Positions 2,464 through 49,048 of a DNA stretch of 64,000 nt are shown piece by piece (the stretch's first letter is position 1; the number at the start of each line of letters is the position of its first letter). The DNA comes from Mobula hypostoma (Eukaryota). The translations under genes and the position numbers were made by a program. A model generated the notes under the pieces. The model was given only the letters and a program-made list of their open reading frames with translations, had not been told where the DNA came from and searched no databases. The stretch lies in the NCBI RefSeq assembly GCF_963921235.1, contig NC_086097.1, positions 124,994,001-125,058,000 of the forward strand, given 5' to 3'.

Positions 2464-4636
2464 GGGAGCGAGATGGATTAAAGAAGAAGGCTGGGACAGG
2501 GAATAGACTTCGTGGATTTTTAAAGGTGGAAGAATATAAAAATATATTATTAACTATATGATAGAGGGAAAGATATGTAAAAGTTTGAGGAATATTAGTT
2601 GGGAATAGTGACATTAAATTTTTTTTATATATATAATTTTTTTTGTTATGGGGGAGCTGGAAGAAATACTGACCAATCGCTACGGGATTCGTGTGTGCAA
2701 TCATGGCGACAACCATGACCCGCAAAATGGAGGGGGGTAATGTTGTGGTTTTTTCACTCACAACATTAGTAGGGGGGTATTTTGTTATTCTTCTTTTTAT
2801 ATTATATCTATTTTTTATTTCTTTCTTTTTGCCTGGATGATTGGCGGGGGGGGGGGCGGGGAAACACATAGCAACATGGTGAAGTTTAAAGAGATTCCCC
2901 AAGGGACTATGAGAGTTGAGATGTTAAGTAATGTTTTAGATTGGAGTAGTTTTGTTAAGAATAATGACTAACTTATTGAATTTTTTGAGTTTTAATGTTA
3001 ATGGGCTTAACGGACCTGTGAAAAGAAAAAGAATTTTAACACACATTAAGAAAATGAAGGTAGATATAGCCTTCTTGCAGGAAACACACTTAACAGAAAC
3101 AGGACATCAGAAATTAAAGAGGGACTGGGTGGGAAGTGTTGTTGCAGCTTCATTTAATTCAAAAGCGAGGGGAGTAGCAATTTTGATCAATAAAACATTA
3201 CCAATTAGAATACAAAATGTAATAACTGATTCTGCGGGGAAATATGTGATTATACACTGCCAACTTTTTTCCGAATTATGGACCCTCATGAATATTTATG
3301 CACCAAATGAATATGATGCAAAATTTATACAAGAAGCTTTTTTGAATTTGGCTGATGCACATGATAAAATATTAATAGGTGGAGACTTTAACTTTTGCCT
3401 CGACCCAGTCTTAGACAGATCAACTAAGGCTGTTACAAAATTGAAAGTAGTAAAACTAACTTTATCATTGATGAAAGATTTAAATTTGATTGACATATGG
3501 AGAAGAATTAACCCCAAAGAAAGAGACTATTCATTCTATTCTAACAGACATAAAACTTACTCAAGGATAGATTTTTTTCTATTATCAATGAATATTCAAG
3601 ATAGAGTGATAAATATGGAATATAAAGCGAGAATATTGTCAGATCACTCTCCTTTATTAATGACAGATAAAGAAGAAGCGACTTATAGATGGAGATTTAA
3701 TTCAATATTATTAAAACGTCAAGATTTTTGTGATTTTATGAAAAAACAGACCCAATTTTTTTTTGGATTCAAACTCTCTTTCAGTTGATGATAAATTTGA
3801 TTTATGGGATGCGATGAAAGCATATTTGAGGGGTCAGATAATAAGTTAAATGTCTAAAATTAAGAAGGAATATATGGTAGAACTAGATCAATTGGAAAAA
3901 GAGATTACAAAATTAGAAAGAGAATCTCAAAGACATATGATTGAAGAAAAATGAAGACAACTAGTCAATAAGAAGTTACAATGTAATACGCTTCAATCAT
4001 ATCGAACGGAAAAAGCAATCATGAGAACTAAGCAAAGGTATTATGAGTTAGGGGAGATCACACAAAATTCTTGCTTGGCAGTTGAAAACAGAACAGGCTG
4101 CCAGAACGATAAATGCAATTAGAATAAGTGCAAAAAAAATTATTTATAAACCTTTAGAAATTAATGAAACCTTCAGAAGTTTCTACTCTGAATTATATCA
4201 ATCGGAATCACAAAACAATATTAATGAGATAGAAAGATTTTTATCACAAATAACTCTTGCTAAATTGAACTCGGAAGAACAGAAGGGATTAGATATGTCT
4301 TTTACATTAAAGGAGGTTGAAGAAGCTTTAGGATCACTTCAAAGTAATAAATCTCCAGGAGAGGTTGGTTTTCCGCCTGAATTTTATAAAAAGTTTAAAG
4401 ATTTATTAATTTCTCCTTTTATGGAGTTAATGTGTCAAGTGGAAAAAACACATAAACTTCCAGTATCTTTCTCGACAGCGATTGTAATAGTATTGCCAAA
4501 AAAAGATAGAGATCCTAAAACCAGCATCATATAGGCCTAAACAACAGGAATTCTGCAGATGCTGGAAATTCAAGCAACATACATCAAAGTTGCTGGTGAA
4601 CGCAGCAGGCCAGGCAGCATCTATAGGAAGAAGCGC

Positions 4637-4672
4637 AGTCGACGTTTCAGGCCGAGACCCTTCGTCAGGACT
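4637..4672 (-). ncRNA. Minimal type I hammerhead ribozyme in the PLE 3' region
   Basis: The minus strand reads AGUC-CUGACGA-agggucucggccu-GAAA-CG-UC-GACU. The core boxes are intact and stem I is AGUC/GACU. Confidence 0.8.
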
Positions 4673-4966
4673 AACTGAAGGAAGAGTGAGTAAGGGATTT
4701 GAAAGCTGGAGGGGGAGGGGGAGATGCAAAATGATAGGAGAAGACAGGAGGGGGAGGGATAGAGCCGAGAGCTGGACAGGTGATAGGCAGAAGGGGATAC
4801 GAGAGGATCATGGGACAGGAGGTCCGGGAAGAAAGACGGTGGGGGGGGTGACCCAGAGGATGGGCAAGAGGTATATTCAGAGGGACAGAGGGAGAAAAAG
4901 GAGAGTGAGAGAAAGAATGTGTGCATTAAAAAGAGTAACAGATGGGGTACGAGGGGGAGGTGGGGC

Positions 4967-5710
4967 CTAGCGGAAGTTAGAGAAGTCAATGTTCATGCCA
5001 TCAGGTTGGAGGCTACCCATACGGAATATAAGGTGTTGTTCCTCCAACCTGAGTGTGGCTTCATCTTTACAGTAGAGGAGGCCGTGGATAGACATGTCAG
5101 AATGGGAATGGGATGTGGAATTAAAATGTGTGGCCACTGGGAGATCCTGCTTTCTCTGGCGGACAGAGCGTAGATGTTCAGCAAAGCGGTCTCCCAGTCT
5201 GCGTCGGGTCTCACCAATATATAAAAGGCCACATCGGGAGCACCGGACGCAGTATATCACCCCAGTCGACTCACAGGTGAAGTGATGCCTCACCTGGAAG
5301 GACTGTTTGGGGCCCTGAATGGTGGTAAGGGAGGAAGTGTAAGGGCATGTGTAGCACTTGTTCCGCTTACACGGATAAGTGCCAGGAGGGAGATCAGTGG
5401 GGAGGGATGGGGGGGACGAATGGACAAGGGAGTTGTGTAGGGAGCGATCCCTGCGGAATGCAGAGAGAGGCGGGGAGGGAAAGATATGCTTAGTGGTGGG
5501 ATCCCGTTGGAGGTGGCGGAAGTTACGGGGAATAATATGTTGGACCCGGAGGCTGGTGGGGTGGTAGGTGAGGACCAGGGGAACCCTATTCCTAGTGGGG
5601 TGGTGGGAGGATGGAGTGAGAGCAGATGTACGTGAAATGGGGGAGATGCGTTTAAGAGCAGAGTTGATAGTGGAGGAAGGGAAGTCCCTTTCTTTAAAAA
5701 ATGAAGACAT
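4967..5710 (-). CDS. PLE ORF C-terminal part: RT thumb/linker and GIY-YIG endonuclease (5'-truncated)
   Basis: CKRNKCYTC zinc-linker followed by GVIYCVRCSRCGLLYIGETRRRLGDRFAEH...EEQHLIF...PDGMN. Confidence 0.85.
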   Translation of the reverse strand: MSSFFKERDFPSSTINSALKRISPISRTSALTPSSHHPTRNRVPLVLTYHPTSLRVQHIIPRNFRHLQRDPTTKHIFPSPPLSAFRRDRSLHNSLVHSSPPSLPTDLPPGTYPCKRNKCYTCPYTSSLTTIQGPKQSFQVRHHFTCESTGVIYCVRCSRCGLLYIGETRRRLGDRFAEHLRSVRQRKQDLPVATHFNSTSHSHSDMSIHGLLYCKDEATLRLEEQHLIFRMGSLQPDGMNIDFSNFR

Positions 5711-6058
5711 CTCCCTCGTCCTAGAATGAAAAGCCTCATCCTGAGAGCAGATGCGGCGGAGACGGAGGAATTGCGAGAAGGGGATGGCGTTTTTGCAAGA
5801 GACAGGGTGAGAAGAGGAATAGTCCAGATAGTTGTGAGAGTCAGTAGGCTTATAGTAGACATCAGTGGATAAGCTGTCTCCAGAGACAGAGACAGCTTAT
5901 CCACTGATGTCTACTATAAGCCTACTGACTCTCACAACTATCTGGACTATTCCTCTTCTCACCCTGTCTCTTGCAAAAACGCCATCCCCTTCTCGCAATT
6001 CCTCCGTCTCCGCCGCATCTGCTCTCAGGATGAGGCTTTTCATTCTAGGACGAGGGAG

Positions 6059-6802
6059 ATGTCTTCATTTTTTAAAGAAAGGGACTTCCCTTCCTCCACT
6101 ATCAACTCTGCTCTTAAACGCATCTCCCCCATTTCACGTACATCTGCTCTCACTCCATCCTCCCACCACCCCACTAGGAATAGGGTTCCCCTGGTCCTCA
6201 CCTACCACCCCACCAGCCTCCGGGTCCAACATATTATTCTCCGTAACTTCCGCCACCTCCAACGGGATCCCACCACTAAGCATATCTTTCCCTCCCCCCC
6301 TCTCTCTGCATTCCGCAGGGATCGCTCCCTACACAACTCCCTTGTCCATTCGTCCCCCCCATCCCTCCCCACTGATCTCCCTCCTAGCACTTATCCGTGT
6401 AAGCGGAACAAGTGCTACACATGCCCTTACACTTCCTCCCTTACCACCATTCAGGGCCCCAAACAGTCCTTCCAGGTGAGGCATCACTTCACCTGTGAGT
6501 CGACTGGGGTGATATACTGCGTCCGGTGCTCCCGATGTGGCCTTTTATATATTGGTGAGACCCGACGCAGACTGGGAGACCGCTTTGCTGAACATCTACG
6601 CTCTGTCCGCCAGAGAAAGCAGGATCTCCCAGTGGCCACACATTTTAATTCCACATCCCATTCCCATTCTGACATGTCTATCTACGGCCTCCTCTACTGT
6701 AAAGATGAAGCCACACTCAGGTTGGAGGAACAACACCTTATATTCCGTATGGGTAGCCTCCAACCTGATGGCATGAACATTGACTTCTCTAACTTCCGCT
6801 AG
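6059..6802 (+). CDS. PLE ORF C-terminal part with GIY-YIG endonuclease (mirror copy)
   Basis: The 247-aa product is identical to that of 4967-5710 except for 3 substitutions (P/L, G/S, H/Y). Confidence 0.85.
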   Translation: MSSFFKERDFPSSTINSALKRISPISRTSALTPSSHHPTRNRVPLVLTYHPTSLRVQHIILRNFRHLQRDPTTKHIFPSPPLSAFRRDRSLHNSLVHSSPPSLPTDLPPSTYPCKRNKCYTCPYTSSLTTIQGPKQSFQVRHHFTCESTGVIYCVRCSRCGLLYIGETRRRLGDRFAEHLRSVRQRKQDLPVATHFNSTSHSHSDMSIYGLLYCKDEATLRLEEQHLIFRMGSLQPDGMNIDFSNFR

Positions 6803-7094
6803 GCCCCACCTCCCCCTCGTACCCCATCTGTTACTCTTTTTAATGCACACATTCTTTCTCTCACTCTCCTTTTTCTCCCTCTGTCCCTCTGAATATACCT
6901 CTTGCCCATCCTCTGGGTCACCCCCCCCCGTCTTTCTTCCCGGACCTCCTGTCCCATGATCCTCTCGTATCCCCTTCTGCCTATCACCTGTCCAGCTCTC
7001 GGCTCTATCCCTCCCCCTCCTGTCTTCTCCTATCATTTTGCATCTCCCCCTCCCCCTCCAGCTTTCAAATCCCTTACTCACTCTTCCTTCAGTT

Positions 7095-7130
7095 AGTCCT
7101 GACGAAGGGTCTCGGCCTGAAACGTCGACT
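7095..7130 (+). ncRNA. Minimal type I hammerhead ribozyme in the PLE 3' region
   Basis: agtc CTGACGA agggtctcggcct GAAA cgtc gact; predicted GUC cleavage after 7126. Confidence 0.8.
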
Positions 7131-7780
7131 GCGCCTCTTCCTACAGATGCTGCCTGGCCTGCTGCGTTCACCAGCAACTTTGATGTATGTTGATCATATA
7201 GGCCTATTTCTTTGTTGAACATGGATTATAAAATAATAGCAAAAATTTTATCTAGTAGATTATCTAAATATTTGCCAAAATTAATACATATGGATCAAAC
7301 AGGATTTATTAAAAATAGACAATTGGCAGATAATGTAACTCGGCTACTTAGTATAATTCATTTGGCACAAAAAAGGGAGGAAATGAGTATGGTAGTAGTC
7401 TTGGATGCAGAAAAAGCATTTGATAGATTGGAATGGGATTTTTTATTTAAAGTATTAGAAAAATATGGGTTTGGAGTACCTTTTATAAACTGAATTAAAA
7501 GCTTAAACACTAATCCTAACGCTAAAGTAGTGACAAATAGTCAAATTTCAACACCATTCCAGTTAAAAAGGTCAACTAGACAAGGTTGTCCATTACCACC
7601 TGCTTTATTTGTATTGGCGATAGAACCATTAGTAGAACTAATTAGAATTGATTCAGATATTAAGGGTTTTAGAGTTAATCAGGAGGAATATAAGATTAAT
7701 TTATCTGCTGATGATGTTTTGATTTATTTAACAAATCCACTGCATTCGTTACGTAAACTATCTTCTAGATTGGAAGAATA

Positions 7781-12620: not shown

Positions 12621-14488
12621 TATCTTAGCAGAAACCTAAATACCAGACTGTGAAGCTTAATTAACAGGACACACTGCGTTTTACAGAGAAGCTGCAGAAA
12701 ATAAAATACCTAACAGCACAGCAGTAGGAATACAATAAAACATGTTCTTAACTAGGTATTACATTTGATTTTGCGACCATGGGATTTGTTAAATTCAATT
12801 ATAGGCATTTTTTGTCGTTTTGACAGAATGACTTTCATGTGACTACTCAGAGTCATTGAGTAATAAAGCACAGAAACAGGCTCTTCGGCCCATCTGCTCC
12901 ATGCCAACCACAGCATACTCCCTGCTAGTCCCAGCTGTTTGCCTTTGATGCACAACCCTCCAAGCCCCACCCCACCACTTACTTAACTAAATGCCTCTTA
13001 TATCTTGCAATTGCAGCCGCCTCGACCACTTCCTCTGGCAGCTCATTCGATGTCCTCATTACCCTTTGAGTAAAGACGTTATTTCTCACATCACCTTTAA
13101 ATCTCTACACAAAAGATCCTGCAGATGCTGCACAAAGTGCCGGAGGAACTCAGCAGGTCAGGCAGCACCTATGGAGAGGAATAAACAGTTGACTTTTTGG
13201 CCAGAGACCCTGTATCAACAAGTGTGTTGCTTGGACTCACCAACCTGGGGAATGTATGACTGTCCACCTTATCCATACCCCTCATGATTTTATAATCTTC
13301 TGTGAGGTCACTCCTCATTCTCCTATGCTACAAGTACAAAACTTCAGAGTGGGTAATCTCTTTCTAGAGAGCAGACCCTCTAGTCCAGGAAGCATCCTCA
13401 GAAATCTCCTCTGTCACCTCTCCAGGTTGACAATATCAAGTTCACATTTAACCGTTGTTCAACACACGAATGAAGCCAAATGAAACAGCGTTCCTTCACA
13501 GCAAAACATGGCACATTCACACAGAGCACATTTAGTTAGAATAGCAGAAAAACATACTATTACGAATATGGCCTGTGGATTAATGATGCAGCAGCCCTCT
13601 TTGTGCCTGAATGCAGACATAGACGAATGCAATCCAACTCATCTTCCACTGAGCAAACACTGGAGGGCAGCACCAATGTAGGGGCCAGCCTCCAACCCAG
13701 CTCTCACCCACACCAGCTCTGGCCTCTCCTTTCCTGAGCAGCTGCAAGAGACAACCCTGAGGCTTAAGGGCCTGGTCCACACAACAACTGAGCCCACAAA
13801 GCTCCTGTGCTGTTGGCTTTGCTAACGAACTAGTCAACTGGTCTTGCAGTATTCTACATTAACTATGTCCAAGATCACAAGAAAAATGTCCTAGACAATC
13901 ATTTGCATTGTTTGCTGGACCGCGAGCCACCTCTGGCACTTTTTTCTCAGGTGGCTGAAGCCACTGATGACAGGTTACGCAACAAGTCCAGCTCCACGAC
14001 CATAGAGCAACTCACAAGTGGGCCAGAGCTACAGCACCTGATGTTCTCAATATGCAGCAGTGTCTTGTGATCACTCAAAAGATGCAAAGGACAAACAATT
14101 ACACCTGTCACTATCCAAGTGATGGTAGATCAGTCCCTCAGAATCCCCTCCAGTAGCTTCCCTCCAACTGAAGTCAGGCTCACTGGCCTGTCCTTGCTAC
14201 CCTTCTTGAACAATGGAGCCTACAGTCTCCAAAGAACCCTCCAGTCTTCTGGAACTTCACCAGAGGCTAATGAATATACAAATATCTCTTCAAAGGCATC
14301 CGTGATTTCTTACGTAATATGCATGTGGTCCAAGACTTCACCATGTATTACCTCATTTCTTTGGCATCCGTGACATTCTCCGTAGTAAGCATTGAGGAGA
14401 AAAAGACATTAAAAATCTCAGCCACATCCTGTGGCTACACACTTAGGTGCTCTTTGTGAGGACCAAACCACTCTCTCGTCACCCTAGC

Positions 14489-25450: not shown

Positions 25451-28100
25451 TTACAGAGAATGGTGCGAGAAGCAAAATACATCCAGTCAGTGGCAGCTCT
25501 GTGGGTGAAAATGCCTTGTTAATGAGAGAGATCAGAGGAGAATGGCCAGACTGGTTCAATCTAACAGGAAGGTAACAGTAATTCAAATAACCATGTGCTA
25601 CAACAGTGGTGTGCAGATGAGCATCTCAGAATGCACAACACGTTGAACTTTGAAGTTGATGGGCTACAGCAGCAGAAGACCATAAACGTACGGTCAGTGG
25701 CCACTTTATGAGATACAGAACGTACATCATAAAGTGGCCTCTGAGTGTATAATACATCCTCAAGGAGATAACCAGCGTCCATCCTTGCGTCTTCCCAAGC
25801 CAGTGACACTTTCTTTGCTTGATAAGAGATTTAATGTTTGCCTTCTCTGCTTTTGAGATGAATATTGTGTTGGAAAGTGTTTGTTGCCATGGGCTGCAAA
25901 GATTCCATCATGAAATACTGAGATTACACCATGAAGATTGCAGGTGAGGTTGTTGATTCCCGATTTTATCTCGTAGTTAGAAGGCCAATAGGATCCTGGG
26001 ATGTCAGTGAGAGGAAAATAAAAGCCTTCGTCACTGATAAATATTGATAAACACCTCTGCTGAGTCGTGGCTCAGATTTAGTTTTTTTAAATGAATTGTT
26101 TTTTAGGTTCGTTAGGATGTTTTGGGGATGGAGAAGGAAGTGAGGAATCAGGTTAGGGTTTAGGAACAGAGATGTGGGCGAATTAGAGATCAGGCTGGAG
26201 TCTAAGTCTCTACTCCATATTTGAAGACCAGCAAAGTGGATATGGGATATCCATGGATGGATGCCAAATGTCGAACCAGCAGAGCACGGGTGAGGGATGC
26301 CCCTCTTGCCCAAGGTCAACATGTAGGCAGGAGGAGTTCCAACGACCTGCTGGGTTCGCAAATCGGTCAGTCTGAAGCTTGAAGCCTAGTGTTTGCGGTT
26401 CCATCATCGGAGAGTTTGTAGTTCAGTGATCAATGTGTTCTGAGATCAATGCCAAGGATCGAAGCCCAAAGGCTGAATTGGGAATCCAGAAGTCGAGACC
26501 CATTGGCTGGAGTCGAGTCCGCGAATCTCTGTGAGTCCTCTGGGGAGCTTGAAACCTGGTGTCTGCTGGCTTGAGTCCATATCCTCTGGAGGCTGGAGGT
26601 CCGTCCTGGGATTAAGGGACTGTGTATTTGTGTGGGTGAGAGGAAGGAATAGGGCTTGTTTTTGTTGCGGTGTTGTTGCTTGTTGTGTTGTGTCCGATGT
26701 TGTTTTCCTGAGAATTGTGGACCTGATATGTTGGTGCCAGAATGCGTGGCGACGTTTGCGGGCTGCCCCCAGCACACCCTCGGGTGCGTTGGTTGTTGAC
26801 ACAAACAATGCATTTCACTGTTCTGATGCACATGCAATAAATAAACTTGGATCTTGAACTTTGAAAGTGTAATTGATAACAGAAGTGCGGGTTGACAATG
26901 TCTTGTTAAACAGTGGTCCCTCCTTATGAGACGTCAGTTCTGAGAGATGACAAGAGAGATCAGCTTTATTTGCCAGTTGTACATCGAAACATTCAGTGAG
27001 ATGCGTCATACGAGTCAAGTCATATCAGCGAGGATTTGCTGAGGGCAGCCCTCAAATGTCACCATGCTTCTGGTGCCAACACAGCCTGCCCACAACTCAT
27101 ACCCTAACTGTACAACTTCTGAATGTGGGGGGAAACTGCAGCAACCGGAGGAAACTCATGCAGCCACGGAGACAACGCACAAGCTCCTTACAGGTCACGG
27201 CAGGAACTGAACCCTGATCGGTGATCGTTGGTGCTGTAAAGCGACGGTGTGAACCATTGTGCTACGGTGCCATCACTGGATGTAACGCTGTGGATTCCAG
27301 CTTCAGAAGTTAAGCACACTCTCAGTTTGGAACCCTTGTGGCAGATCTTGTCTTTCTATATTCAGTCTTCTTATTAAGTCACCTACAGATCTGATTTAGA
27401 TTTATTTATCACATGTAAATCGAAACACACGGTGAAGTGTGATGTTTGCGCTTACAACAAGCACACCTGAAGGTGTGCTGGGGACAGCCCGCAAGTGTCA
27501 CCACACATTACACTGTCAACGTAGCATGCCCACAATGCTCGGCAGAACAACACAACACAGCAAAAAACACACATCCAGTGACAAAGCAACAACAGCAAAA
27601 CCAGCCCCGTTCCTCCCTCCTCCCACCCACCTATGTACACACACCACACTCTAATCCCAGGATAGGCCATCATCTTCAATTTCTAGCCTCCAGTGCACAG
27701 GTGGATTTGCAGACATTGGGCCTTCAACTTCCCCAGCGGATTTGCAGAGATTTGCAGACTTGGTCTCTGGCCATTGCGACACGATTGCTGGACTTCAGGT
27801 TTTGATCTGGACTTCTGATCGACCTTTGTGCTTTGATCTTTGGTATTGACCCAATATTCTCCAATGACAATGAATGAGGACCCGAAATCCAAGCCTCCAC
27901 CTCTGGACTTACCAATAACTGCACACTGAACACAAGGCCTCGAACCCCAGTCTTGCCATTCACATACCTAGGAGGTCACTGGCCCTCGTTCCTCCTGCTT
28001 TCTTGGAATTTCAATCCCAGAAGGCGCCAACAACTCCAGCTCCCATCTTTGCTGATCTGCGGGCCTAACATCTGATCACATCCACGTCTCTGACCTTCAA

Positions 28101-28315
28101 GCACACAAAATGCTGTAGGAACTTAGCAGGTCAGGCAGAATTATGGAGAGGAATAAAGAACTGACGTGTCAGACCGAGACCATTCATCCTGAAATGTCCA
28201 TTCTTTTGGGTTCCTTCTTCTCCATGGATGCTGCCTGACCTGCTGAGTTCCTCCAGCATTTTGTGTGTTGCTCTGGATTTCTGGTACCTGCGGAATCTCT
28301 TGTGTTTACGATTTG
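28101..28315. mobile_element. Short PLE-derived fold-back element (two inverted 3' ends) with TSD
   Basis: Arm cacacaaaatgctgtaggaacttagcaggtcaggcag pairs with ctgcctgacctgctgagttcctccagcattttgtgtg. TSD ctgaccttcaa at 28090-28100 and 28316-28326. Confidence 0.8.
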
Positions 28316-28684
28316 CTGACCTTCAAACACAGAGTGGAAGCTTAGACTCTAGTCTGTCCTTTATTTCCCTCACGTCTCTATCCTAACCTGACTCACCAAA
28401 ATTTGAAAATGGTGCATCTGTCACCTCACTTTGGAATGATGCCAACAAAAACAGTTGAAGGGTTCCATCTATGATAATTGCTAAAGTAATTAGAAATGGC
28501 TGAGACATTAATTATAATGCAATCACATAAAGAGATACTAAAGGACATAACCTGAATTGTATTAATGTTCTTGCTGGAGTCTCCTGGGTGTGGTACAGAT
28601 AGCAGTCACCTGAGTCAGCTCTGTCTACAGCAGCTAGCGTTAGTAGTTCTCAGCCTGGCAGCCTCTACCAAGGCACCACAATTA

Positions 28685-29250: not shown

Positions 29251-29800
29251 AAAAAAGTGTCTTTAGTAGGCCATTTGAGCTCAGGGCTAACAATGTTGGA
29301 AAAAATAATAGTAACCATGGTAATTAATAATACTACTTTAGGTACCACTTACCAAGTATTGTGGGTCACATGTTTCTCTCTGCTTCACTAAGAATTGATG
29401 TACTATGATCTGCAAATAAATTAAACTGGAAATCCATGTGTTCTTTTTCCTCATCCTCATTGCCTACAATTGTTTCACTGGAAAGTTGACTGGTTTTGGA
29501 GTGCTAGGCCTGATGTTCAGGATCTTCGGGGTTGATGGTGAGCATTGAGATCCAGGGGTCGAATCAGAAGTCCAAAGTGGAAGCCCATTGTCTGGAGTCC
29601 TGGTTCTGTGAATCTCCGTGTGTCCTCTGGGGAGGTCGAAGGCTTGAGACTTCCGGTAGCGCTCATGGAGTGAAGTCGCGTTCTTGACTCGCTCCATTAC
29701 CTCTGAGTTTTTTCTCTCTATGGTCAGCTATACTTTAATTAACTATTAAGGCATCAATTTTTACAATACTTTGAATTAAACTGAATTCTCTGACAATTGG

Positions 29801-30700
29801 ATGGAACTTAGATCTGCTATGTCTAAGAACGGGAAAGACGGCAAGGATGGTAAACCTCCGGTTAAACCGAAAGCTACGGATCTCCCTCCGACTGAATCAC
29901 CGGTGACTTTGGAAGCTATATCGGAGTTAATTCAGAGGGAAATTTCAACCTCTGTTAGGGAGATGATTCGTACAGAAATTATGGGCTTTGTTAAAGACCT
30001 GATTCATACGGAAATCTCAACTAAGTTCCAGAAAATTGCCGATTTAATTGATAAGATGCAAACATGTATTGCGGAACATCAGTCGGCTATATCTGGTCTT
30101 CAAAAATCCGCGCAACAAAGTGAGCTTAAGATGGGGAAAGTCAAAGAAACAATTAATGTAATGAAGAAGAAACTTGACTTTTTGACTTTTAAAAACTCTG
30201 ACTTGGAATCTAGAATGCGACGGCAGAATTTACGAATGATTGGCGTCAGGGAAGCCGTGGAAGCTAACAACCCTATGAAATATTTCTCCCAACTTTTAAA
30301 AGATGCATTCCCTACTGTATTTCCTGACCAACCACCGCTACTGGATCGTGTTCACAGAATCCCATCATACTCGTCTAGGTCAGATAGACCTAGGCATGTT
30401 ATCTTACGTTTTCATTACTTTCAAGATAAGGAGAGACTGTTTCGATTCGCTCGATCTAAAGGTTTCATTGATTTTTCGGATCTTAAGTTCCGATTCGTGG
30501 AAGATTTCAGTAAACCAATCTGGGACCAACGGGTCCGTTACAGATCCGTGATGTCGGAATTCTATAAGATGGATTTAAGACCAGCGCTGCTGTACCCTGC
30601 ACGTCTAAGGATTCGCATGTTAGATGGAGCTCTTCGTTTTTTTGATTCTCCATCGGATGCCCAGAGCTATCTGGATCAACTTTCATCTTCAACATCTTAA
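29801..30700 (+). CDS. L1 ORF1p, 299 aa, intact
   Basis: Coiled coil followed by DLESRMRRQNLRMIGVRE, LDRVHRI, RPRHVILRFHYFQDKE and LLYPARLRI. Confidence 0.93.
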   Translation: MELRSAMSKNGKDGKDGKPPVKPKATDLPPTESPVTLEAISELIQREISTSVREMIRTEIMGFVKDLIHTEISTKFQKIADLIDKMQTCIAEHQSAISGLQKSAQQSELKMGKVKETINVMKKKLDFLTFKNSDLESRMRRQNLRMIGVREAVEANNPMKYFSQLLKDAFPTVFPDQPPLLDRVHRIPSYSSRSDRPRHVILRFHYFQDKERLFRFARSKGFIDFSDLKFRFVEDFSKPIWDQRVRYRSVMSEFYKMDLRPALLYPARLRIRMLDGALRFFDSPSDAQSYLDQLSSSTS

Positions 30701-31420
30701 TTGCCTTTTTTTAATTTTCTCCGTTGATCGGAGGCTGTGAATTGGTTGGTTTTAACTTTTCTGTGCCCTATTTGGGCAGAAAAGTTTACTTTCGATTTCT
30801 TAATATGGCTGCTAAACTTTCTTTTTAACTGCGTCATTTCTTTCTTTTCCCAGGGGATTCTGGGTGGTTACTTCCCTTTTGTCATCTTACGTATTTCCTG
30901 TGCGGCCTTAAATTTTGTAGTTTTTTTTAAATTTTATTCTGTTTTGCTTTTTATAATCATTTTATGTTAATAATCCTATTTTTTTTGTTGCTGTGTCTAT
31001 TCATGAGTTTGAGGTTTATTGTGGTTTTTTTTAATATATACTTTCCGGCTTTTGTTCTGTTCTGTGTGTATTTTAATTGAGTTAACTTTTTTTTACTTAT
31101 TTTTTTTACTGTTTTACAATTAGCTGATCCTTTTCATATTTATACCTTTTTTTTAGGGAGCGTATACCGGAAGTCATGGGGGTAGTTTTAGCGCTTGCTT
31201 CTTTCTGGCGGGTCTGCTTTAGATTTCGCCTTGGGGTCCTGGGGTGGGGGGCGGTGGGAGGGGCTTCACGTTTTAGTTTGTTTCTCTTTGGGCTATATAC
31301 ATTATTGAAGTATTGGTTACGTCCTTTTCCCCGGTATCTTTTGTATGTTCTGTTTCCTCTCCGGGTCTGTGGGTCGCGCCTATTGTCAATCCTCTTTGTT
31401 ATGGGTTGACTTTAGGATTT

Positions 31421-34400
31421 ATGGAGTCTATTATTAATTTTGTCTCCTGGAATACTAATGGTCTTAATCATCCTATTAAAAGGAAAAAAGTTTTTAAAGT
31501 GTTCCGGAGACTTAAAGCACAAATTTTATTTTTACAAGAGACCCATGTACGGAGGGGGGACAGACTACGTTTTTTCAAATTTTGGAAGGGACAACAATTT
31601 CATTCGAACTCCAATGCTAAGATTCGAGGCGTCTCTATCTTTATAGACTCCTCAGTTACTTTTATACAACAGGATATTATCTCTGATCCGAATGGTAGAT
31701 TTTTATTGGTTAGTGGTTTATTATTTAATAAAAAAGTAGTTTTGGTTAATGTTTATGCTCCTAATATGGATTGTCCGGAATTTTATAAATCATTGTTTGA
31801 TCAGTTTCCGAATTTGAACGAGTTTTCATTGATTTGGGGCGGAGATCTTAATACCTGTTTATCTCCAGCTTTGGACCGTTCGGCTCCTTTACGGACTTTA
31901 CCTAATAAATCTGCAAATTTGATTAATTTTTTCCTTTCTGATTCTGGGTCGACGGACATTTGGCGTTTTCTGCATCCTCAGGAAAAAGATTTTTCCTTCT
32001 TTTCACATGTTCATCATTCCTATTCAAGAATTGATTATTTTTTCATTGATTCTCGTCTCATTTCTTCAGTGATTAAATGTGATTATGATTCTATAACCAT
32101 TTCGGATCATGCTCCACTTAAGCTTTCTATTAAAATTATGGCCAATATACCAAACAATAGACAATGGCGTTTTAATTCGCTGTTGCTTCAGGACTCGGAC
32201 TTTGTTAATTTTATGAATGAACAGATTGAGCTTTTTTTTACAATTAACCATACAGAAGATATTTCGGTTAACACTCTTTGGGACACTTTTAAAGCCTATA
32301 TTCGGGGTCAGATTATTTCGTATTCCGTTGCTTTGAGGAAGAAACAGAAGCAGGAGGAGATGGTAATTGTGGACAAGATTAAAGAAATTGATAAGAAATA
32401 TGTTATGGCTCCTTCTGAGGAGCTATACAAACAAAGAACTGAACTTCAAATGGAACACAGTTTACTACTCTCGTCCTCGATTGTAAACCAATTAAAGAAA
32501 ACAAGAAGTGATTTTTATGTTCACAGTGATAAAATTGGCAAGCTGCTGGCTAATCAATTGAAATCTAATTATGTTAAATCTCAAATCAATCAGATTTATA
32601 ACCAAAATGATCGATTGATATTGGATCATGTGGGGATTAATCAAACCTTTTGTGATTTTTATTCTTCTTTATACCAATCAGAGTCTCCTCGAGATTCTAA
32701 ATATATGAATGATTTTTTAGATAAGTTAGACTTCCCTCTGATTTCACAGGATATGTCTTCTTTATTAGATACTTCCATTACAATGGATGAGATTAAGAAT
32801 GTTATTTTTTCTATGAATCTGGGGAAAGCTCCTGGCCCTGATGGGTTTACCGTTGAATTTTATAAATGTTTTGCTTCTTTATTGATTCCTTGGCTCTATA
32901 AGGTTTTTGAGGCTTCTTTGAAACTTGGTAAACTTCCGGAATCTTTTAATAGAGCATCAATTTCTTTAATACTAAAGAAGGATAAAGACCCTGCTCAATG
33001 TGCATCTTATAGACCAATATCTTTATTAAATGTTGATTCTAAAGTTTTTTCTAAGTTATTAGCAAATAGACTAGAAAAAGTACTTCCTTCTATTATTTCG
33101 GAAGACCAAACGGGTTTTATTAAAGGTCGTTACTCTTTTTATAATATTCGTACATTGTTAAATATCGTTTATACTCCCTCACAAAATGTTCCTGAGTGTG
33201 TTATTTCTTTAGATGCCGAGAAAGCTTTTGATAGAGTAGAATGGCCTTATTTATTTAAGGTGCTTGAAATGTTTAATTTTAGCTTGAAATTTATATCCTG
33301 GATTAAACTGTTATATTACTCCCCTGTAGCCTCGGTTCGTACTAACTCCTTAAACTCACCTTTTTTTCCTCTCTTTCGTGGTACTCGACAAGGCTGTCCT
33401 CTTAGTCCCCTATTATTTGATATTGCATTAGAACCTCTTGCAATTGCTATTCGAGAATCTTTAAATATTACTGGGATAACTCGGGGATTAAAGTCCCATA
33501 AATTATCACTCTATGCTGATGATTTACTTTTATATATTTCTAATCCTGAGAGATCCATTCCTGCTGTTTTAGAGTTATTAGCACAATTTGGTCTTTTCTC
33601 AGGTTATAAATTAAATCTTAGTAAGAGTGAACTTTTTCCGATTAATAAACATCTTCCCTTATATTATAAATTTCCATTTAAATTGATTAATAATTACTTT
33701 TCATATCTTGGGATTAAAATTACTTGTAAACATAAAGATTTATTTAAGACTAACTTTTTACCATTAATAGACCATATTACTCAACTTTCATCTAAATGGT
33801 TTCCCTTATATTTAACTTTGATTGGTCGTATTAATGCAGTTAAGATGTTTTTTTTGCCAAAATTTTTATATGTGTTTCAGGCATTACCAATTTTCGTTCC
33901 TAAATCTTTTTTTGATAAAGTTGACTCTAAAATTTCTTCATTTATTTGGCAGAACAAGAATCCGAGACTGGGTAAAATACATTTACAGAAAGCTAAGAGA
34001 GATGGAGGTTTAGCATTACCTAACTTTAGATTTTATTATTGGGCTATTAATATTCGACATATGAAATTTTGGTTACTTGATCGGGACATACTATTTATTC
34101 CTAAATGGGTAGCATTGGAATTACAATCTGTTCAGGGTTATACACTTGGTTCTATTTTAGGTTCCTCTCTTCCTTTTGATTCGAAACGTCTTAAGCAGGT
34201 CTCTAACCCGATAGTTAAATATGCTTTGCGCATTTGGTTTCAATTCAGAAAATTTTTTGATCTTAATCAATTCGGGTTAGCGATTCCTATTTTAGGTAAC
34301 ATATTTTTTCCTCCCTCTTTTACGGATCGCGCTTTTCAAACTTGGAAGACTAAGGGTATTTTACGGTTTTTGGATTTATTTTTAGATGGTTCCCTTATGT

Positions 34401-35198
34401 CTTTTGAACAATTATCTAACAAATATAACTTATCAAGAATACATTTTTTTAGATATTTACAAGTTAGAAATTTCCTAAGTACTATACTTACTTCCTTTCC
34501 AATGCTTCCTCCTATATATATTTTAGATTCGATAATTAACCTTAATCCATGTCAGAAAGGTGCATCGGCTATGATTTATAATATTATTATGAAACTTAGG
34601 AAAGCTCCATTTGATAAGATTAGGGTAGATTGGGAACAGGAATTGGGGCTTACCATTTCTGTGGATGATTGGGGGCAGATTTTACAATTAGTTAATACTT
34701 CCTCTATTTGTGCTAAACATTCCCTAATTCAATTTAAAGTGGTTCATAGAGCACATATGTCCAAAGATAAGTTAGCGCGTTTTTACTCGCATATTAATCC
34801 TTTCTGTGATAGATGTTCGGGGCAGATAGCCTCTTTAACTCATATGTTTTGGTCTTGCCCTACTTTGGAAACTTTTTGGAGAGATATTTTCAATATTATT
34901 TCTAAGGTATTAAATATAGATATCTCTCCTCACCCTATTACTGCTATCTTTGGACTACCTAAAATTTCTAGTAATCTTTCCCCTTCAGCCCGTAGAATGA
35001 TTGCATTTCTTACTTTAATGGCGAAAAGATGTATTTTACAACATTGGAAAGAGCTTAATGCTCCAACTACCTTTTTTTTGGTTTTCTCAGACGATTTTAT
35101 GTTTGAATCTGGAGAAAATTAGAAGTAACCTTTATGATTCTTCATTTAAATTTGAACAGATTTGGGGACCTTTTATTCGATATTTTCATTTAATGTAA
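31421..35198 (+). CDS. L1 ORF2p (EN-RT-Cys); open from ATG 31421 to a single +1 frameshift in the T8 run at 35072-35079; corrected stop at 35196-35198
   Basis: Motifs SWNTNGLN, FLQETH, GGDLN, SDH, SYRPISLLNVD, GTRQGCPLSPLLF, LYADD and CDRC..LTHMFWSC. Removing one T gives FWFSQTILCLNLEKIR...QIWGPFIRYF, which matches the other L1's C-terminal LEKI...IWRPY. Confidence 0.92.
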
Positions 35199-36670
35199 TA
35201 TTTACCCTTCTTGTTTTCTCTTCACTGTTTTAATGGAGGTCGGGATTGAGGACGTGATTTTAAGTTTAACTCTGTTTGGTTTCAAGTTAGCCCATTGCTT
35301 TGCTTTGCTTTTAGTTAGTTGCACGGTGGGTTTTTTTTTGGGGGTTTTTTTTTTTCTTTTTTTCCATTGATATATATAAAATCTAGTATACTATTATGTT
35401 ATCTTGGTTTCTTATGCTTAAATTACATTGTTTGTAGTATTTTCTTTTTGGTATTGTTATCTTTTGGAATTTTATTATACTTTAACATTGTATTAATGTT
35501 TATATGGCTTACCTTTTTTGTATACTTACTCAATAAAAAGATTTAAAGAGAGGGAGGTCGAAGGCTTAATGTCTGCATGCCCGAGCCAAATCTGAGTCTG
35601 GTGGATGAAGAAGGTGACCTGTCTTTAGGTTAGAGGACTGTGTATGTGAGTGGGTGGGTGGGAGGGAGGAACGGGACCTGTTTTGCTGTTGTTTTGTTGT
35701 TGGTTGTGTTACTGTTTTGGTGTGTTCTGTGTTGTTTTGCTGAGCATTGTGGGCAGGCTATCTTGGCACCGTAATGCGTGGTGACACTTGTGGCTGTGTT
35801 GGTTGCTCAAGCAAACAACGCATTTCACTATATGTTTCAATATACACGTGATAAGTAAACGTGAATCTTGATCATATAGAGAAATTGTGTTACAGTACTG
35901 TTTGCATCAGTGGAGACACAAAAGGCTGCAGATACTGCAATCTGGAGCAACGAGCAATCGCTGGAAGAACTGAACAGGCCGAGCAGCATCTCTGGGGGAA
36001 AGGACATTGTTGATGTTTTGTGTTGGAACCAACTGCATTGAGTTCTGAATGCAGGGCTTTGGCCTAAATTATCAAATATTTCTTAGATGTTGCTCAAAAT
36101 CTTGAGTTCCTTCATCAGATTACTTGCTGCTATCTGTATTGGATTTTTTTTTTGCCATAGTATTGGGCCTGACTGTGTAGTAGCCTTTGTATCTCTAGCT
36201 CTTGGTTTAAGATTTAACCAGGGACTTGAACATGTACTGTGTAGATGTATAGTGGAGAATATACTGACTGGTCACAGCCTGACATAGAAACATCAATGCC
36301 CTTGAAAGGAAAATCCCACAAAGTAGTGGATACAGTCCAGACCATCACAGTAAAGCCGTCCCCACCACTGAGTACAACTACATGGAGTGTTATCATAGGA
36401 AAGCTGCATCCATCATCAGGGACTCCCACCACCAGGCCATGCTCTCTTCTCACTTCTGCCATCAGGAAGACGGTACAGGGGCCTCAGGACTCACACCACC
36501 AAGTTCAGGAACAGTTATTACCCCTCAACCATCAGGCTTTTGAACCAAAGGGGATAACTTCACTCAACTTCACTTGCCCCATCACTGAATTGTTCCCACA
36601 ACACATGGACTCTCTATCAAGGACTCTGCATCTCACGTTCTCAATATTTATTGCTTATGTATTAACACCT

Positions 36671-44247: not shown

Positions 44248-44742
44248 GACTACACAGGACTGAAAGAAGCTGCAGAAGGTTGTAAATCCAGTCAGCTCCA
44301 TCTTGGGCACTAACCTACAAAGTACCCAGGACATCTTTAGGGAGCAGTGTTTCAGAAAGGCAACGTCCATTATTAAGGACCTCCAGCACCCAGGGCATGC
44401 CCTTTTCTCACTGTTACCATCAGGCAGGAGATACAGAAGCCTGAAGGCACACACTCAGCGATTCAGGAACAGCTTCTTCCCCTCTGCCATCTGATTCCTA
44501 AATGGACATTGAACCTTTGGACACTACCTCTTTTTTTAATATACAGTATTTCTGTTTTTGTACTTTTTAAAAATCTATTCAAAATACGTAATTGATTTAC
44601 TTGTTTATTTATTATTATTTTTTTATCTCTGCTAGATTATGTATTGCATTGAACTGCTGCTGCTAAGTTAACAGATTTCACATCACATGCTGGTGATAAT
44701 AAACCTGATTCTGATTCTGATTCTGATTCTGATTCTGATTCT
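44248..44742 (+). mobile_element. Rex1/Babar 3' end (family C) with a (ttctga)n tail, fused directly to the CR1 EN region
   Basis: Encodes IIKDLQHPGHALFSLLPSGRRYRSLK..RFRNSFFPSAI; ends in aataaacctga(ttctga)n. Confidence 0.85.
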
Positions 44743-46512
44743 AAACGTTGAAATCAAATCCGCATCCGCCACTTGTGCTGACAGCTTGTTCCACACACTC
44801 ACCACCCTCTGAATGAAGAAGATCAAAATTAGGTTTATTATCACCAGCATGTGATGTGAAACTTGTTAACTTAGCAGCAGCAGCAGTTAATGTATTACAT
44901 AATATAGAAGAGGAAAAAAAATAAATAAGTGAATCAATTATCGTATATGTATATTGAATAAGTAGTTCCCCCTCAAGTTCCCCTTAAACATTTCACCTTT
45001 CACCCTTAACCCATGACTTATAGTTGTAGTCTCACCCAACCTATACCCTCATAATTTTGTATACTTTTGTATAATTTTATCAAGTCTCCACTCAATCTTC
45101 TGAATTCTAGGGAATAAAGTCCGAACCTATTCAAACTTTCCCTCAAGTCCCAGCAACAGCCTTGTAAGTTTTCTCTGCACTCTTTCAATCTTGTTTATAT
45201 CCTCACTGTAGGTAGTTGACCAAAACTGCACACAATACATCATATTTGGCCTCACCAATGTCTCATACAATTTCAACATAACATCCCAACTCCTGCACTC
45301 ATACATTGATTTATGAAGAGCAATGAGGCAAAAGCTTTCTTTACAATCCTAAGAAACTGCTTAAAATGATCAACATGTCTGTAAAATGTTTGTCTGAAAC
45401 TGAGTGATAGTAGGCACTTGCGTGGAAAAAATTAATAAAGAAAGTTCGAAGGTCAAAGTTCAAAGTAAATTTATTATCTAAGTACATATATGTCACCATA
45501 TACTACCTTGAGATTCATTTTCTTGTAGAACAAAGAAATACAATAGAATCAGTGAAAAACTACAGATTGAGAAGCAACCAATGTGCAAAACAGAAACTGT
45601 GGAATACAATAAAACAAATGATAATAAAAAATAAACAATACTGAGATCTGATCTTTATCTTAATTGAGCTTTATTTGTCACATGTACATCAAAACAGTGA
45701 AATGCGTCAAATCAAATCCGCGAGGATTGTGACACTGCCACCCACATTTGTCACCTCCCTTCCAGCACTAACGTGGCATCGCCGCAGCTCACTCACTCTA
45801 ACTGTACGCCTTTGGAATGTGGAGGAAACCGGAGCACCCAGAGGAAACCCACGCAGTCACAGGGAGAACATGCAAGCTCCTAACAGACAGCGGTGGGAAT
45901 AGTACCTCGATCCAGCGGCTAGCGTTCCTTCCATAACGTAAAAGGTTCTATTTAACTACAAGATCCTTTGAATTTTGAAGCAGAGAGAAATACTAGATTA
46001 GATTTGGAAGCATTGAATTAGCTTGTGAACAAAGCCAGTGTACATGCTTAAGCACCACTTATCTGTAAATTGCACAAAGCCACCAGGCAAATCACATTAC
46101 AATCTTGAATGAGTCTACTTCATTTTAAAAGTGTAAGAACATTGAACAGTAAACGGCAGGCCCTCTATCCCATAATGCGTGCTGACCTTTTACCTTACTC
46201 AAAGATCAATTGTAATGCTTCCCTCTCATGTTGTTCTCCCAGAACAAATCCCTGTGGAACGCCACTGCTCTCCAACCTCCAGGCAGGATACACTCCAACT
46301 TTTATCACCCTCTGCCTTCTGTGGGCAAGCCAATTCTGAATTCAGACAGCTAAGTTTCCCTTGATCCTATGCCTCCCTGACCTTCAGAAGATCTTCTCCT
46401 AAGTTGGAGGACAGTCTGTGCAGGTGGGTGGGTACGAGGAAGGAAGGAAACTTGTTTTGCAGTTGTTGTTTTGGTGCTAGTTGTGTTCTATATTGTTTTG
46501 TCGAGCATTGTG

Positions 46513-49048
46513 TGTTACGTTTGTTCTGTAACAAAGACAAACTTCTGTGGGTAAAAACGCTGGATCTATTTTACTTACAGATTTGTAGAATAGCTTTAGC
46601 TCAACCACATTTTACTCGGGACTGTCCAGTCTGCCAAGGGCGCGTGTGTGTCCTGTTCACCAACGTCACTTCTAGTTCTGAGTGAACCAGCCACATTGCC
46701 CACTGGAACTGAAGTTCTTTATTATGTACACACATAATAACACATCTTCCCTCTTTGAAGAAAATAAACTATGTTCTCATGAGTCCGCAGGACACAATAA
46801 TTCTTTCCAACAGAGATATTTACATTAACTTCAATCGTAATGAGCAAATACATTCCTTTATTCACTCAGTGACTCTCAATCCATCTCTGTGGTGACTTAA
46901 TGATCCCTTTTGGACTACTATTTGTTTCCATAGATGTCTTGCTTTACTGTGCTGCGTTAATGCCAATGTCCTTTTGATAACTCTCATCTATGTGTTCATT
47001 TCTTTCACATCCTTCTGCCCAGATCCTATTTGTTCATCTCTGTTCTTGTTCTTGCTGTGTGACCATAATTCACTCCCTGTGCCTCATAATGGAGCCCTGA
47101 ACTGCATCCATGTGAACAGTGAGTGTTTGCATGAGTTCCAATTGATTCTGTCTCAATTCACAGAGCTCCTTCTGTTGGCTGTGCATCATAGAGAGCAACT
47201 ACTCCTGTGGGTTTCTGTTAAGCTGTTGCTGTTGCTCTGACCTTTGAGTCTGTGTGGTCTCCCCATCTTCCTCTTTTATTTTTCCTCTTCAACTTCAGTG
47301 AGAATCATGTAGATTTTTTTGATTTCCAGTCTTTAAGTAGAAGTCAATGAGAGACAAATTTTGAACCAAAGCTATATGATGTGGAAGCAAGACTGGTGAT
47401 TTCTTCATCATGATCACACTGTACAGCACTGGCATCCTGACTGTCATGCTGAGGTAGCTGATATGAATGTCTATGGAAGATGGAGTTCTTGTGCCTCTCT
47501 TGTATAGCCTCTCTAGAGCTCTCATGGATGCTGTTACAAGTTTCTCGAGTTACATCAGGTAAGCACCCGAGCCTCTCAAAGCCATCTGCACACTCTTTTT
47601 TGAGTGTTGCCTAATCACCTTTGGTTTGTGAAGCCATGATGAAAACTCCTTCCACCAGGTTGAGCCTTTCGCATGCAGTCAGACCTAATATTGGTTGTAT
47701 TCGTTTTTCAATAATCAGTAGCTGTGTTTTCAGGTGCTGCCCCTTGTGCTTGAAGGTCACCATACAGCCTTCTTTTATTGGAACATTTTCTCCTGTACAG
47801 CCTGTCATTTTACAGGGTAAATCTTGCTCTTTACTTTGAGAGTCTTGTAACATCCATGGATAACAGATTTACTTGGGCTCTGATATCAAGCTTGAATGGA
47901 ATTATTGTCTCATTCACAGTCACTGGAAAAATCCATTCTGTTTTACCATCACAGGCAGTCTGTAGAGAATCCACAAAGTATTCCTCTATTTCCTCATCAA
48001 ATGTGTGCACCTTTCTCTTGGTAGCCCCAGCTTTGCAGCACTTGGCAAAATGATTCTTCTTCCCACAATTATTACAGGACTTTCCATAAGCAGGACACTT
48101 CTTTGGGATATGCCTACTTCCACATATGGTGCTTGAGACTATCTCTTTGCTATGCTGTTGCTTTGGGAAACACCTTGTGCTCTGCCCCCCTGTTTTCACA
48201 GCATACGCTGTTGTTTTGGCTCTATGTAGCTCCTTAGCTTGTGTCGTGTGGTCTCCACTGCCTGCCCTACACATATTCACCGCCTTTACTAGCATCAAAT
48301 CATTGTCACAGAGCAAGCTTTCTCTGAGAACATTATCTAGGATTCCTCAAACTATTTTGTCTCTGAATAGTGAGTCTCTCAGATCTCCAAACTCACAGGA
48401 CCTACCCAGTGTGTGAAGCTCATCTAAGTATTGGTCAAAACTAACAGCTTGTTTCTGTTCACAGGAGAAGAACTTATATTGCTCAAACATGACGTTTTTC
48501 CTTGGGACAAAATATGTCTCAAATTTTGCCATAAGAGTGTCCAATGTCAAGGCTATCTCATCACTGTGAAAGCTGTTATAGATGACTAAAGCATCTTCAC
48601 CAATTACATGTAAAAAGATAGACGCTTTCAATTTTCCCTCTGCAACTTCAGCTCTGCTCACCGCTAAATATATCTTGAAATTGCTGTTTGAAACATTTCC
48701 AATTATCAGCTGGATTGTCAGTAAAATGCATAGCTGCAAGGGGATTTGGATTGTCCATGAGGGGATTTTTAGGCTCTCACCTCAATTTCTTGGTGAACTT
48801 CAAGACGGCGTGCTCTCTTGTTGGCAGCTTCTCTCTGTCAGAACTTTGTGTCTCTTTCTTAGCTGCTCATGGTATTCAGCTATGCTTTGTACTGAGACCT
48901 GAAGTCAACTCCTGACACCATGTTATGATTGTTCGTTAACAAAGACAAACTTGAGTGGGTAAAAACACTAGAACTATTTTATTTACTGATTTACAGAATG
49001 GCTTCAACTCGGCTACGTTTTACTTGGGACTCTCCAGCCTGCCAAGAG

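Follow-up and report, generated by a model that had tools for sequence, protein, structure and literature searches.

A 215-bp inverted pair of PLE ends in Mobula hypostoma is very probably an insertion by-product rather than a new kind of mobile element

A 215-bp hairpin in the genome of the cartilaginous fish Mobula hypostoma is the smallest form of the known insertion of Penelope-like elements (PLEs) in which an inverted copy carries a tail, and it is a by-product rather than a new kind of mobile element. It is a dead, fixed, single insertion, very probably made long ago by an endonuclease-bearing PLE and left as two very short ends in head-to-head orientation. We studied this mini-element together with its relatives in the window, by which we mean the whole stretch of 64,000 nucleotides that was analysed (contig NC_086097.1). 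The features discussed are collected in Table 1.

The mini-element (28101-28315) is flanked by two copies of an 11-mer, the target-site duplication (TSD); with both strands counted, the word occurs just these two times in the whole window. An exact repeat of at least 11 at insert-like ends, with 15 nt of slack allowed at each end, was found in 5 of 1500 random position pairs. The insert folds into a single long hairpin, with z-scores of -9.9 (DNA) and -11.0 (RNA), and none of 200 shuffles was as strong in either kind of folding. Its arms, both shorter than 130 nt, are identical in 59 of 69 ungapped columns; a 7-nt insertion is private to the long (right) arm, and the insert lacks any ORF. These results bear out the preliminary description, which had seen here a 215-bp insert with an 11-bp TSD, made of two inverted PLE 3' ends around a hammerhead remnant. 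It had also stated that one arm stops about 40 nt short, near the position where the short arm of a 2.65-kb palindrome stops. Indeed, the short arm pairs as far as 28267; from there it is 40-41 nt to where the long end usually lies (28307-28308) and 48 nt to the right TSD. The short arm of the palindrome, 35 nt short, reaches the counterpart of 28270, the two ends agreeing within about 3 nt.

Because target and element match over 6 nt at the short end (28100-28105, with one substitution), the TSD can be drawn as 11 or 16 bp; this match may have been used for priming. Unlike the mini-element, the 2.65-kb palindrome has no target overlap at its short end. On the right, the terminus quoted in the preliminary description falls at 28288-28307, and eight more bases precede the TSD. 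They are possibly further element sequence; the copy at 54.06 kb matches the mini-element for 3 nt past the usual terminus.

Table 1. Positions of the mini-element, its relatives and its empty site in the window
Feature	Position	Strand	Remarks
2.65-kb head-to-head PLE palindrome	4540..7192	.	8-nt loop, 35-nt tail on left
TSD of 2.65-kb palindrome	4526-4539 and 7193-7206		14 bp
Intact minimal hammerhead cores of 2.65-kb palindrome	4668-4644 and 7099-7123
C-terminal part of PLE ORF	5873..6802	+	RT end, CX4CxxC linker, GIY-YIG endonuclease with two internal cysteines
5'-truncated ends in hammerhead region	13217, 28187 (both arms), ~36040 (both arms), 52865
Paralogous empty site	26160..26244	-	same host repeat, TSD word once, no insert
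Left TSD	28090..28100	+	11 bp; may reach 28105, giving a 16-bp TSD with one substitution
Short arm	28101..28187	-	PLE 3' end without tail
Unpaired centre	28173..28187	.	~15-16 nt, short arm only; hammerhead remnant
Long arm	28188..28315	+	PLE 3' end, begins in 3' strand of hammerhead stem II
PLE 'tail'	28268..28308	+	~40 nt, long arm only
Interval between usual terminus and TSD	28308..28315	+	8 nt; 7 of 24 listed pieces from other loci continue to 28312-28323
Right TSD	28316..28326	+	11 bp, second copy of the 28090-28100 word
Decayed fold-back, another PLE subfamily	35911..36130	.	tail on left, without demonstrable TSD

When the flanks of the mini-element were joined over one copy of the TSD, they matched the empty site in the window straight across the junction (62 of 85 positions, E 1.8e-7). 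The host sequence is an old low-copy repeat (flanks 27960-28400) whose paralogue aligns over about 200 nt at 73%. We also compared contigs from four of 23 listed runs, namely X1 (organism A), X5 (organism B), X12 (organism C) and X13 (organism D); runs with small word shares were left out, copies less than 80% alike are invisible to the comparison, counts are lower bounds, and depth values are averages over a contig. Organism A may be the very source of the window and so does not count as independent; it gave two contigs (27940-28244 and 28255-28480) with zero differences. In organism B, contigs lay over both junctions and the centre, differing at 1 (left), 5 (centre) and 1 (right) letters; those of organism D bridged both junctions with 17 of 227 and 14 of 208 other letters (about 7% diverged), and coverage in organism C was limited to the left flank. 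No single contig spans the whole insert with its flanks. Since there is an empty paralogue and the same insertion is found in two other organisms, the insertion is real and old, with an orthologue in organisms B and D.

A related copy is the 2.65-kb palindrome. This palindrome interrupts, at 4526-7206, a decayed LINE ORF2 that looks L1-like, and its arms are identical in 1297 of 1305 columns. The arms of the mini-element match its terminus at 77% over 99 columns. Its ORF remnant contains a GIY-YIG domain (Pfam PF01541, 25.1 bits against a cut-off of 22.6) with the motif GVIYC..C..C..YIG. Longer homologues number 182; among the 120 that were listed, most carry the RT domain (PF00078), the core of which is missing from the copy in the window. 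Chiloscyllium is the named homologue of closest identity (63%) among the matches listed. A CX2-5CxxC linker is present as CKRNKCYTC at residue 176, and the pattern recurs in 96 of the 120 listed homologues. PMC8557442 describes such a linker, placed between RT and endonuclease, as a mark of Neptune/Nematis that Penelope/Poseidon are without; the ORF in the window thus has a linker of the Neptune/Nematis type. An assignment to Poseidon was dropped, given this linker zinc finger. A copy at 28.7 kb matches the terminus of the mini-element (85% over 53 nt) and also endonuclease-coding DNA (78% over 87 columns), linking the two. Homology of the termini thus appears to tie the mini-element to an endonuclease-bearing PLE.

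Twelve PLE 3' ends were located in the window, eleven of them with a profile search; the twelfth (36.1 kb, E 0.23) was included on account of where it lies. The profile found zero matches at E 0.05 in five of five control sequences. It was seeded with eight of the ends that it found, making its end positions partly circular, and the mapping was repeated pairwise against two long arms. Six of the 12 fall between -7 and +3 nt relative to the long end, 'long' being mappable only as far as the reference arms extend; four are 29-41 nt short, and none falls 4-28 nt short. The 51.2-kb end is an outlier, 61-63 nt short, and the 36.1-kb end maps inconsistently, at 74 or 29 nt short. At other loci, 24 listed pieces, biased by having been picked by length, stop at 28307-28309 (15 pieces), 28312-28323 (7) or 28300-28305 (2). 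Loose contig ends cannot separate short from long, as GT slippage and divergence break the alignments at 28265-28268. Because the ends in the window split into a long and a short class, the reproducible integration geometry proposed in the preliminary description is supported, with TSD and arm length free to vary: in the two measurable cases, mini-element and palindrome, the TSD is 11 (to 16) against 14 bp and the arms are about 90 against 1300 nt. The companion proposal of a conversion into MITE-looking elements is not supported as regards elements that then spread: the depth of the centre stays at flank level in the runs compared. No exact repeat of at least 6 was found as a TSD at the copies at 13.1, 39.6, 52.8 and 54.1 kb. 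A solo copy at 13105-13217 keeps the long end and has about 20 nt deleted across the position of the short end.

A second example of the same pattern had been reported at 35915-36130. There is an inverted pair at this place (55 of 79 columns, 0 of 1000 shuffles), belonging to a different subfamily; its short end maps inconsistently, and as a TSD it offers at best a 6-mer within an arm, a length met or exceeded in 384 of 1500 random pairs, which is the level of chance. Several other fold-backs were seen in the window. One at 425-608, unrelated to PLE, has 88-nt arms that are 98% complementary around an 8-nt spacer and no exact TSD of at least 6; it shares a 13-mer with the left junction of the mini-element, judged to be chance, and it is 83% similar to 47741-47811, whose neighbouring ORFs seem akin to LTR-retrotransposon gag/pol. 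An inverted pair at 44654-44883 (62 nt, 94%) consists of the 3' ends of another repeat facing inward around a hexamer run. A short hairpin at 25686-25752 matches a microRNA model on both strands under the gathering threshold. On the forward strand, 29780-35122 holds open frames of 306 and 1281 aa in tandem, presumably ORF1 and ORF2 of a near-intact LINE.

If the hairpin were transcribed and re-inserted by PLE protein in the manner of SINEs or retrozymes, a non-autonomous fold-back family of MITE-looking copies would propagate. Non-autonomous PLE derivatives are indeed described, among them MRC1 (PMC8557442) and retrozymes (10.64898/2026.07.22.740005), and the long arm of the mini-element keeps the complete terminus. 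In the contigs, however, the centre is not multiplied. Summed depth at 28190 is 15.2 in X1, 13.3 in X5, 50.5 in X13 and 0 in X12, and in X1 the flanks stand at 11.5-21.8, whereas values on the arms climb to 2652 (position 28158) and 1.6 million (position 28226). Other contigs do connect left-arm with right-arm sequence over the centre; yet this joint, one among 15 listed of 283, has a depth of 7-45 in at least 1-3 contigs per run, and its single printed centre differs from that of the mini-element. Other fold-backs thus apparently exist, each with its own centre, and the three in the window likewise all differ in centre. Together with a hammerhead that is dead, these observations make propagation of the mini-element very improbable. 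Recurrence of identical mini-elements, named in the preliminary description as the mark of a propagating family, left no sign in the four runs among copies at least 80% alike. The remaining 14 of the 15 listed joints lead from 28262-28269 back to 28215-28229, stepping back 36-54 nt, which suggests head-to-tail repeats of the terminal core at other loci. Scans of viral contigs gave 0 matches to the motif and, at the protein level, no relative, and motif matches at six metagenome loci were dropped, their surroundings being unlike the element.

In a family this abundant, with at least about 80,000-119,000 contigs per deep run, two solo insertions could in principle have landed back to back, or an assembly could have joined them falsely, and the arms are only 85% alike. 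Both arms nevertheless sit inside one TSD, the empty paralogue contains neither of them, no relative has one arm alone at this site, and in organisms B and D contigs cross both junctions, in B the centre as well. Moreover, behind the hammerhead the arms agree in two letters that set them apart from the other aligned copies and from the loose-end consensus of other copies, which argues for one common source of the arms. Two independent insertions or an artefact are therefore highly improbable.

Hammerhead sequence lies at the very centre of the mini-element. At its inner end the short arm still has five bases, the final ones of the first core box, together with stem II and a second core box that is mutated; no intact core was found on either strand of the insert, whereas three relatives in the window have intact minimal cores (at 7099, 4668 and 51160). 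No Rfam hammerhead model gave a match in the window up to E 1; the eight Rfam matches there are all microRNA-like hairpins under their gathering scores, and the centre of the 2.65-kb palindrome also gave microRNA matches below threshold. The label 'hammerhead remnant' is right, and the hammerhead is dead. Could self-cleavage of the template RNA have set the centre? The 5' truncations of six of the 12 PLE ends in the window cluster in a stretch of about 35 nt inside the 5' half of the hammerhead, which points in this direction. However, that cluster lies upstream of the predicted cut (after the GUC equivalent near 28197), and both arms of the mini-element run past the cut, the long one by some 10 nt and the short one by some 30 nt; the 2.65-kb palindrome turns 1.2 kb from its hammerhead; and insertion by PAc is reported not to require hammerhead cleavage (PMC11167929). 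We give self-cleavage very little credence and note that the cluster may mark an RNA start or an RT stall.

MITEs are defined by terminal inverted repeats, a fixed TSD and an amplified family. A DNA-transposon MITE is a practically negligible explanation: the mini-element shares the small size, strong hairpin and TSD, but its inverted repeat falls short of one end by a 40-48-nt overhang, TSD lengths are unequal in the two measurable cases (11 and 14 bp), its arms are retroelement termini also found alone and in long 5'-truncated copies, and its centre is not amplified among copies at least 80% alike.

The best explanation therefore remains one old insertion by an endonuclease-bearing PLE, and its course can be sketched by analogy, transferring the mechanism of the Poseidon-clade element PAc to an element with a linker of the Neptune/Nematis type. 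A GIY-YIG endonuclease would have made nicks staggered by 11-16 bp, leaving the TSD that is observed together with the empty site. RT would have started inside the element RNA, at the distal of two sites as PAc in vitro suggests, and so produced the long, tail-bearing arm. Copying would have ended about 120 nt on; the stop, whose position can be read off the insert, falls in the hammerhead's 5' half and upstream of the predicted cut. The opposite arm ends about 40 nt earlier, at what would be the proximal start site. Once fixed, before organisms A, B and D split, the insert would have decayed, and it would not have been mobile itself.

Two origins of the opposite arm come into question. It would, on balance, probably be a second cDNA primed at the other nick. 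Alternatively, and this we regard as a serious possibility, it could be a fold-back copy of the first cDNA whose hairpin tip later became about 16-20 nt shorter. Simple fold-back of the long cDNA is insufficient, because about 16 nt at the centre occur only in the short arm; a four-base word common to both hammerhead core boxes would allow a tip deletion of 16-20 nt. In the 2.65-kb palindrome the loop belongs instead to the long arm. Its arms stop within 8 nt of one another after 1.3 kb, and the loop carries on the reading frame of the long arm. Residues V-S, read off the opposite arm at the centre, still match homologues (nine in number, e.g. ISIS in P0097), which suggests a probable fold-back overlap of 5-7 nt at the centre of that palindrome.

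From this difference we draw a tentative and rather doubtful proposal, that the small fold-backs of this hugely amplified PLE family, thousands in number, record two different ways of making the inverted arm. On the first, the initial cDNA would fold back on a short inverted match and the loop would fall to the long arm, as in the 2.65-kb palindrome. On the second, the two RT start sites would give two cDNAs, primed on opposite strands, and each would stop at the hammerhead; the signature would be a short-arm loop with a target overlap at the short end, as in the mini-element. If this reading were true, a table of loop ownership and junction overlap would settle second-strand synthesis in PLEs, which is still unvalidated in print, and a genome with so many PLE copies offers a natural data set on how inverted arm and tail form. 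The single locus matters little, being a dead, fixed insertion; stumps of its kind resemble MITEs or microRNA hairpins and carry a risk of mis-annotation.

In conclusion, the asymmetry of the mini-element is the published PLE 'tail' (PMC3846280, PMC8557442, PMC11167929). Tails of 30-40 bp at either end of inverted PLE insertions are usual (PMC8557442, PMC8969392), and here a one-sided tail measures 40-41 nt in the mini-element and 35 nt in the 2.65-kb palindrome. The inverted insertions described in PMC3846280 have 8-10-bp TSDs and palindromes at their junctions that were interpreted as self-priming; among them, Pen2a_Av of Adineta vaga has an inverted pLTR, a 9-bp TSD and an optional 31-bp tail on one inverted repeat. 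With these endonuclease-bearing insertions the mini-element shares an inverted 5'-truncated copy, a variable TSD, a short palindrome or overlap at the junction, an RT/GIY-YIG source (via the palindrome) and a minimal hammerhead, as well as a tail on one arm that may lie on either side, being on the right here and on the left in the palindrome and the 35.9-kb pair. It differs from Pen2a_Av in its arms of less than 130 nt, its lost ORF and its cartilaginous fish host. Our literature search, which had supplements and most subscription papers outside its scope, found no account of miniature PLE fold-backs in cartilaginous fish.

Purified protein of PAc (Poseidon, Anolis carolinensis) acts on both strands, cutting and extending each, and the tail lies between two internal sites of RT initiation (PMC11167929). 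Here, too, there are two end classes 35-40 nt apart downstream of the hammerhead, and copies extend through the uncut hammerhead; in contrast to PAc, the ORF in the window has the CX2-5CxxC linker that Poseidon is without, the element is known from sequence alone, and the short end of the mini-element overlaps the target by 6 nt, PAc being reported to prime without homology (PMC11167929). The relatives at 7099, 4668 and 51160 have the bulged base before stem II of metazoan PLE minimal type-I hammerheads (PMC4209133), of which the mini-element has only broken halves; in Schistosoma, such minimal hammerheads form opposite-strand pairs 100-700 bp apart (PMC4209133). Non-LTR retrozymes (10.64898/2026.07.22.740005) are likewise short, non-coding, PLE-derived and hammerhead-related. 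They are head-to-tail tandems of units each with an intact hammerhead, however, and a retrozyme identity was rejected for the mini-element, which is one head-to-head pair with none intact.
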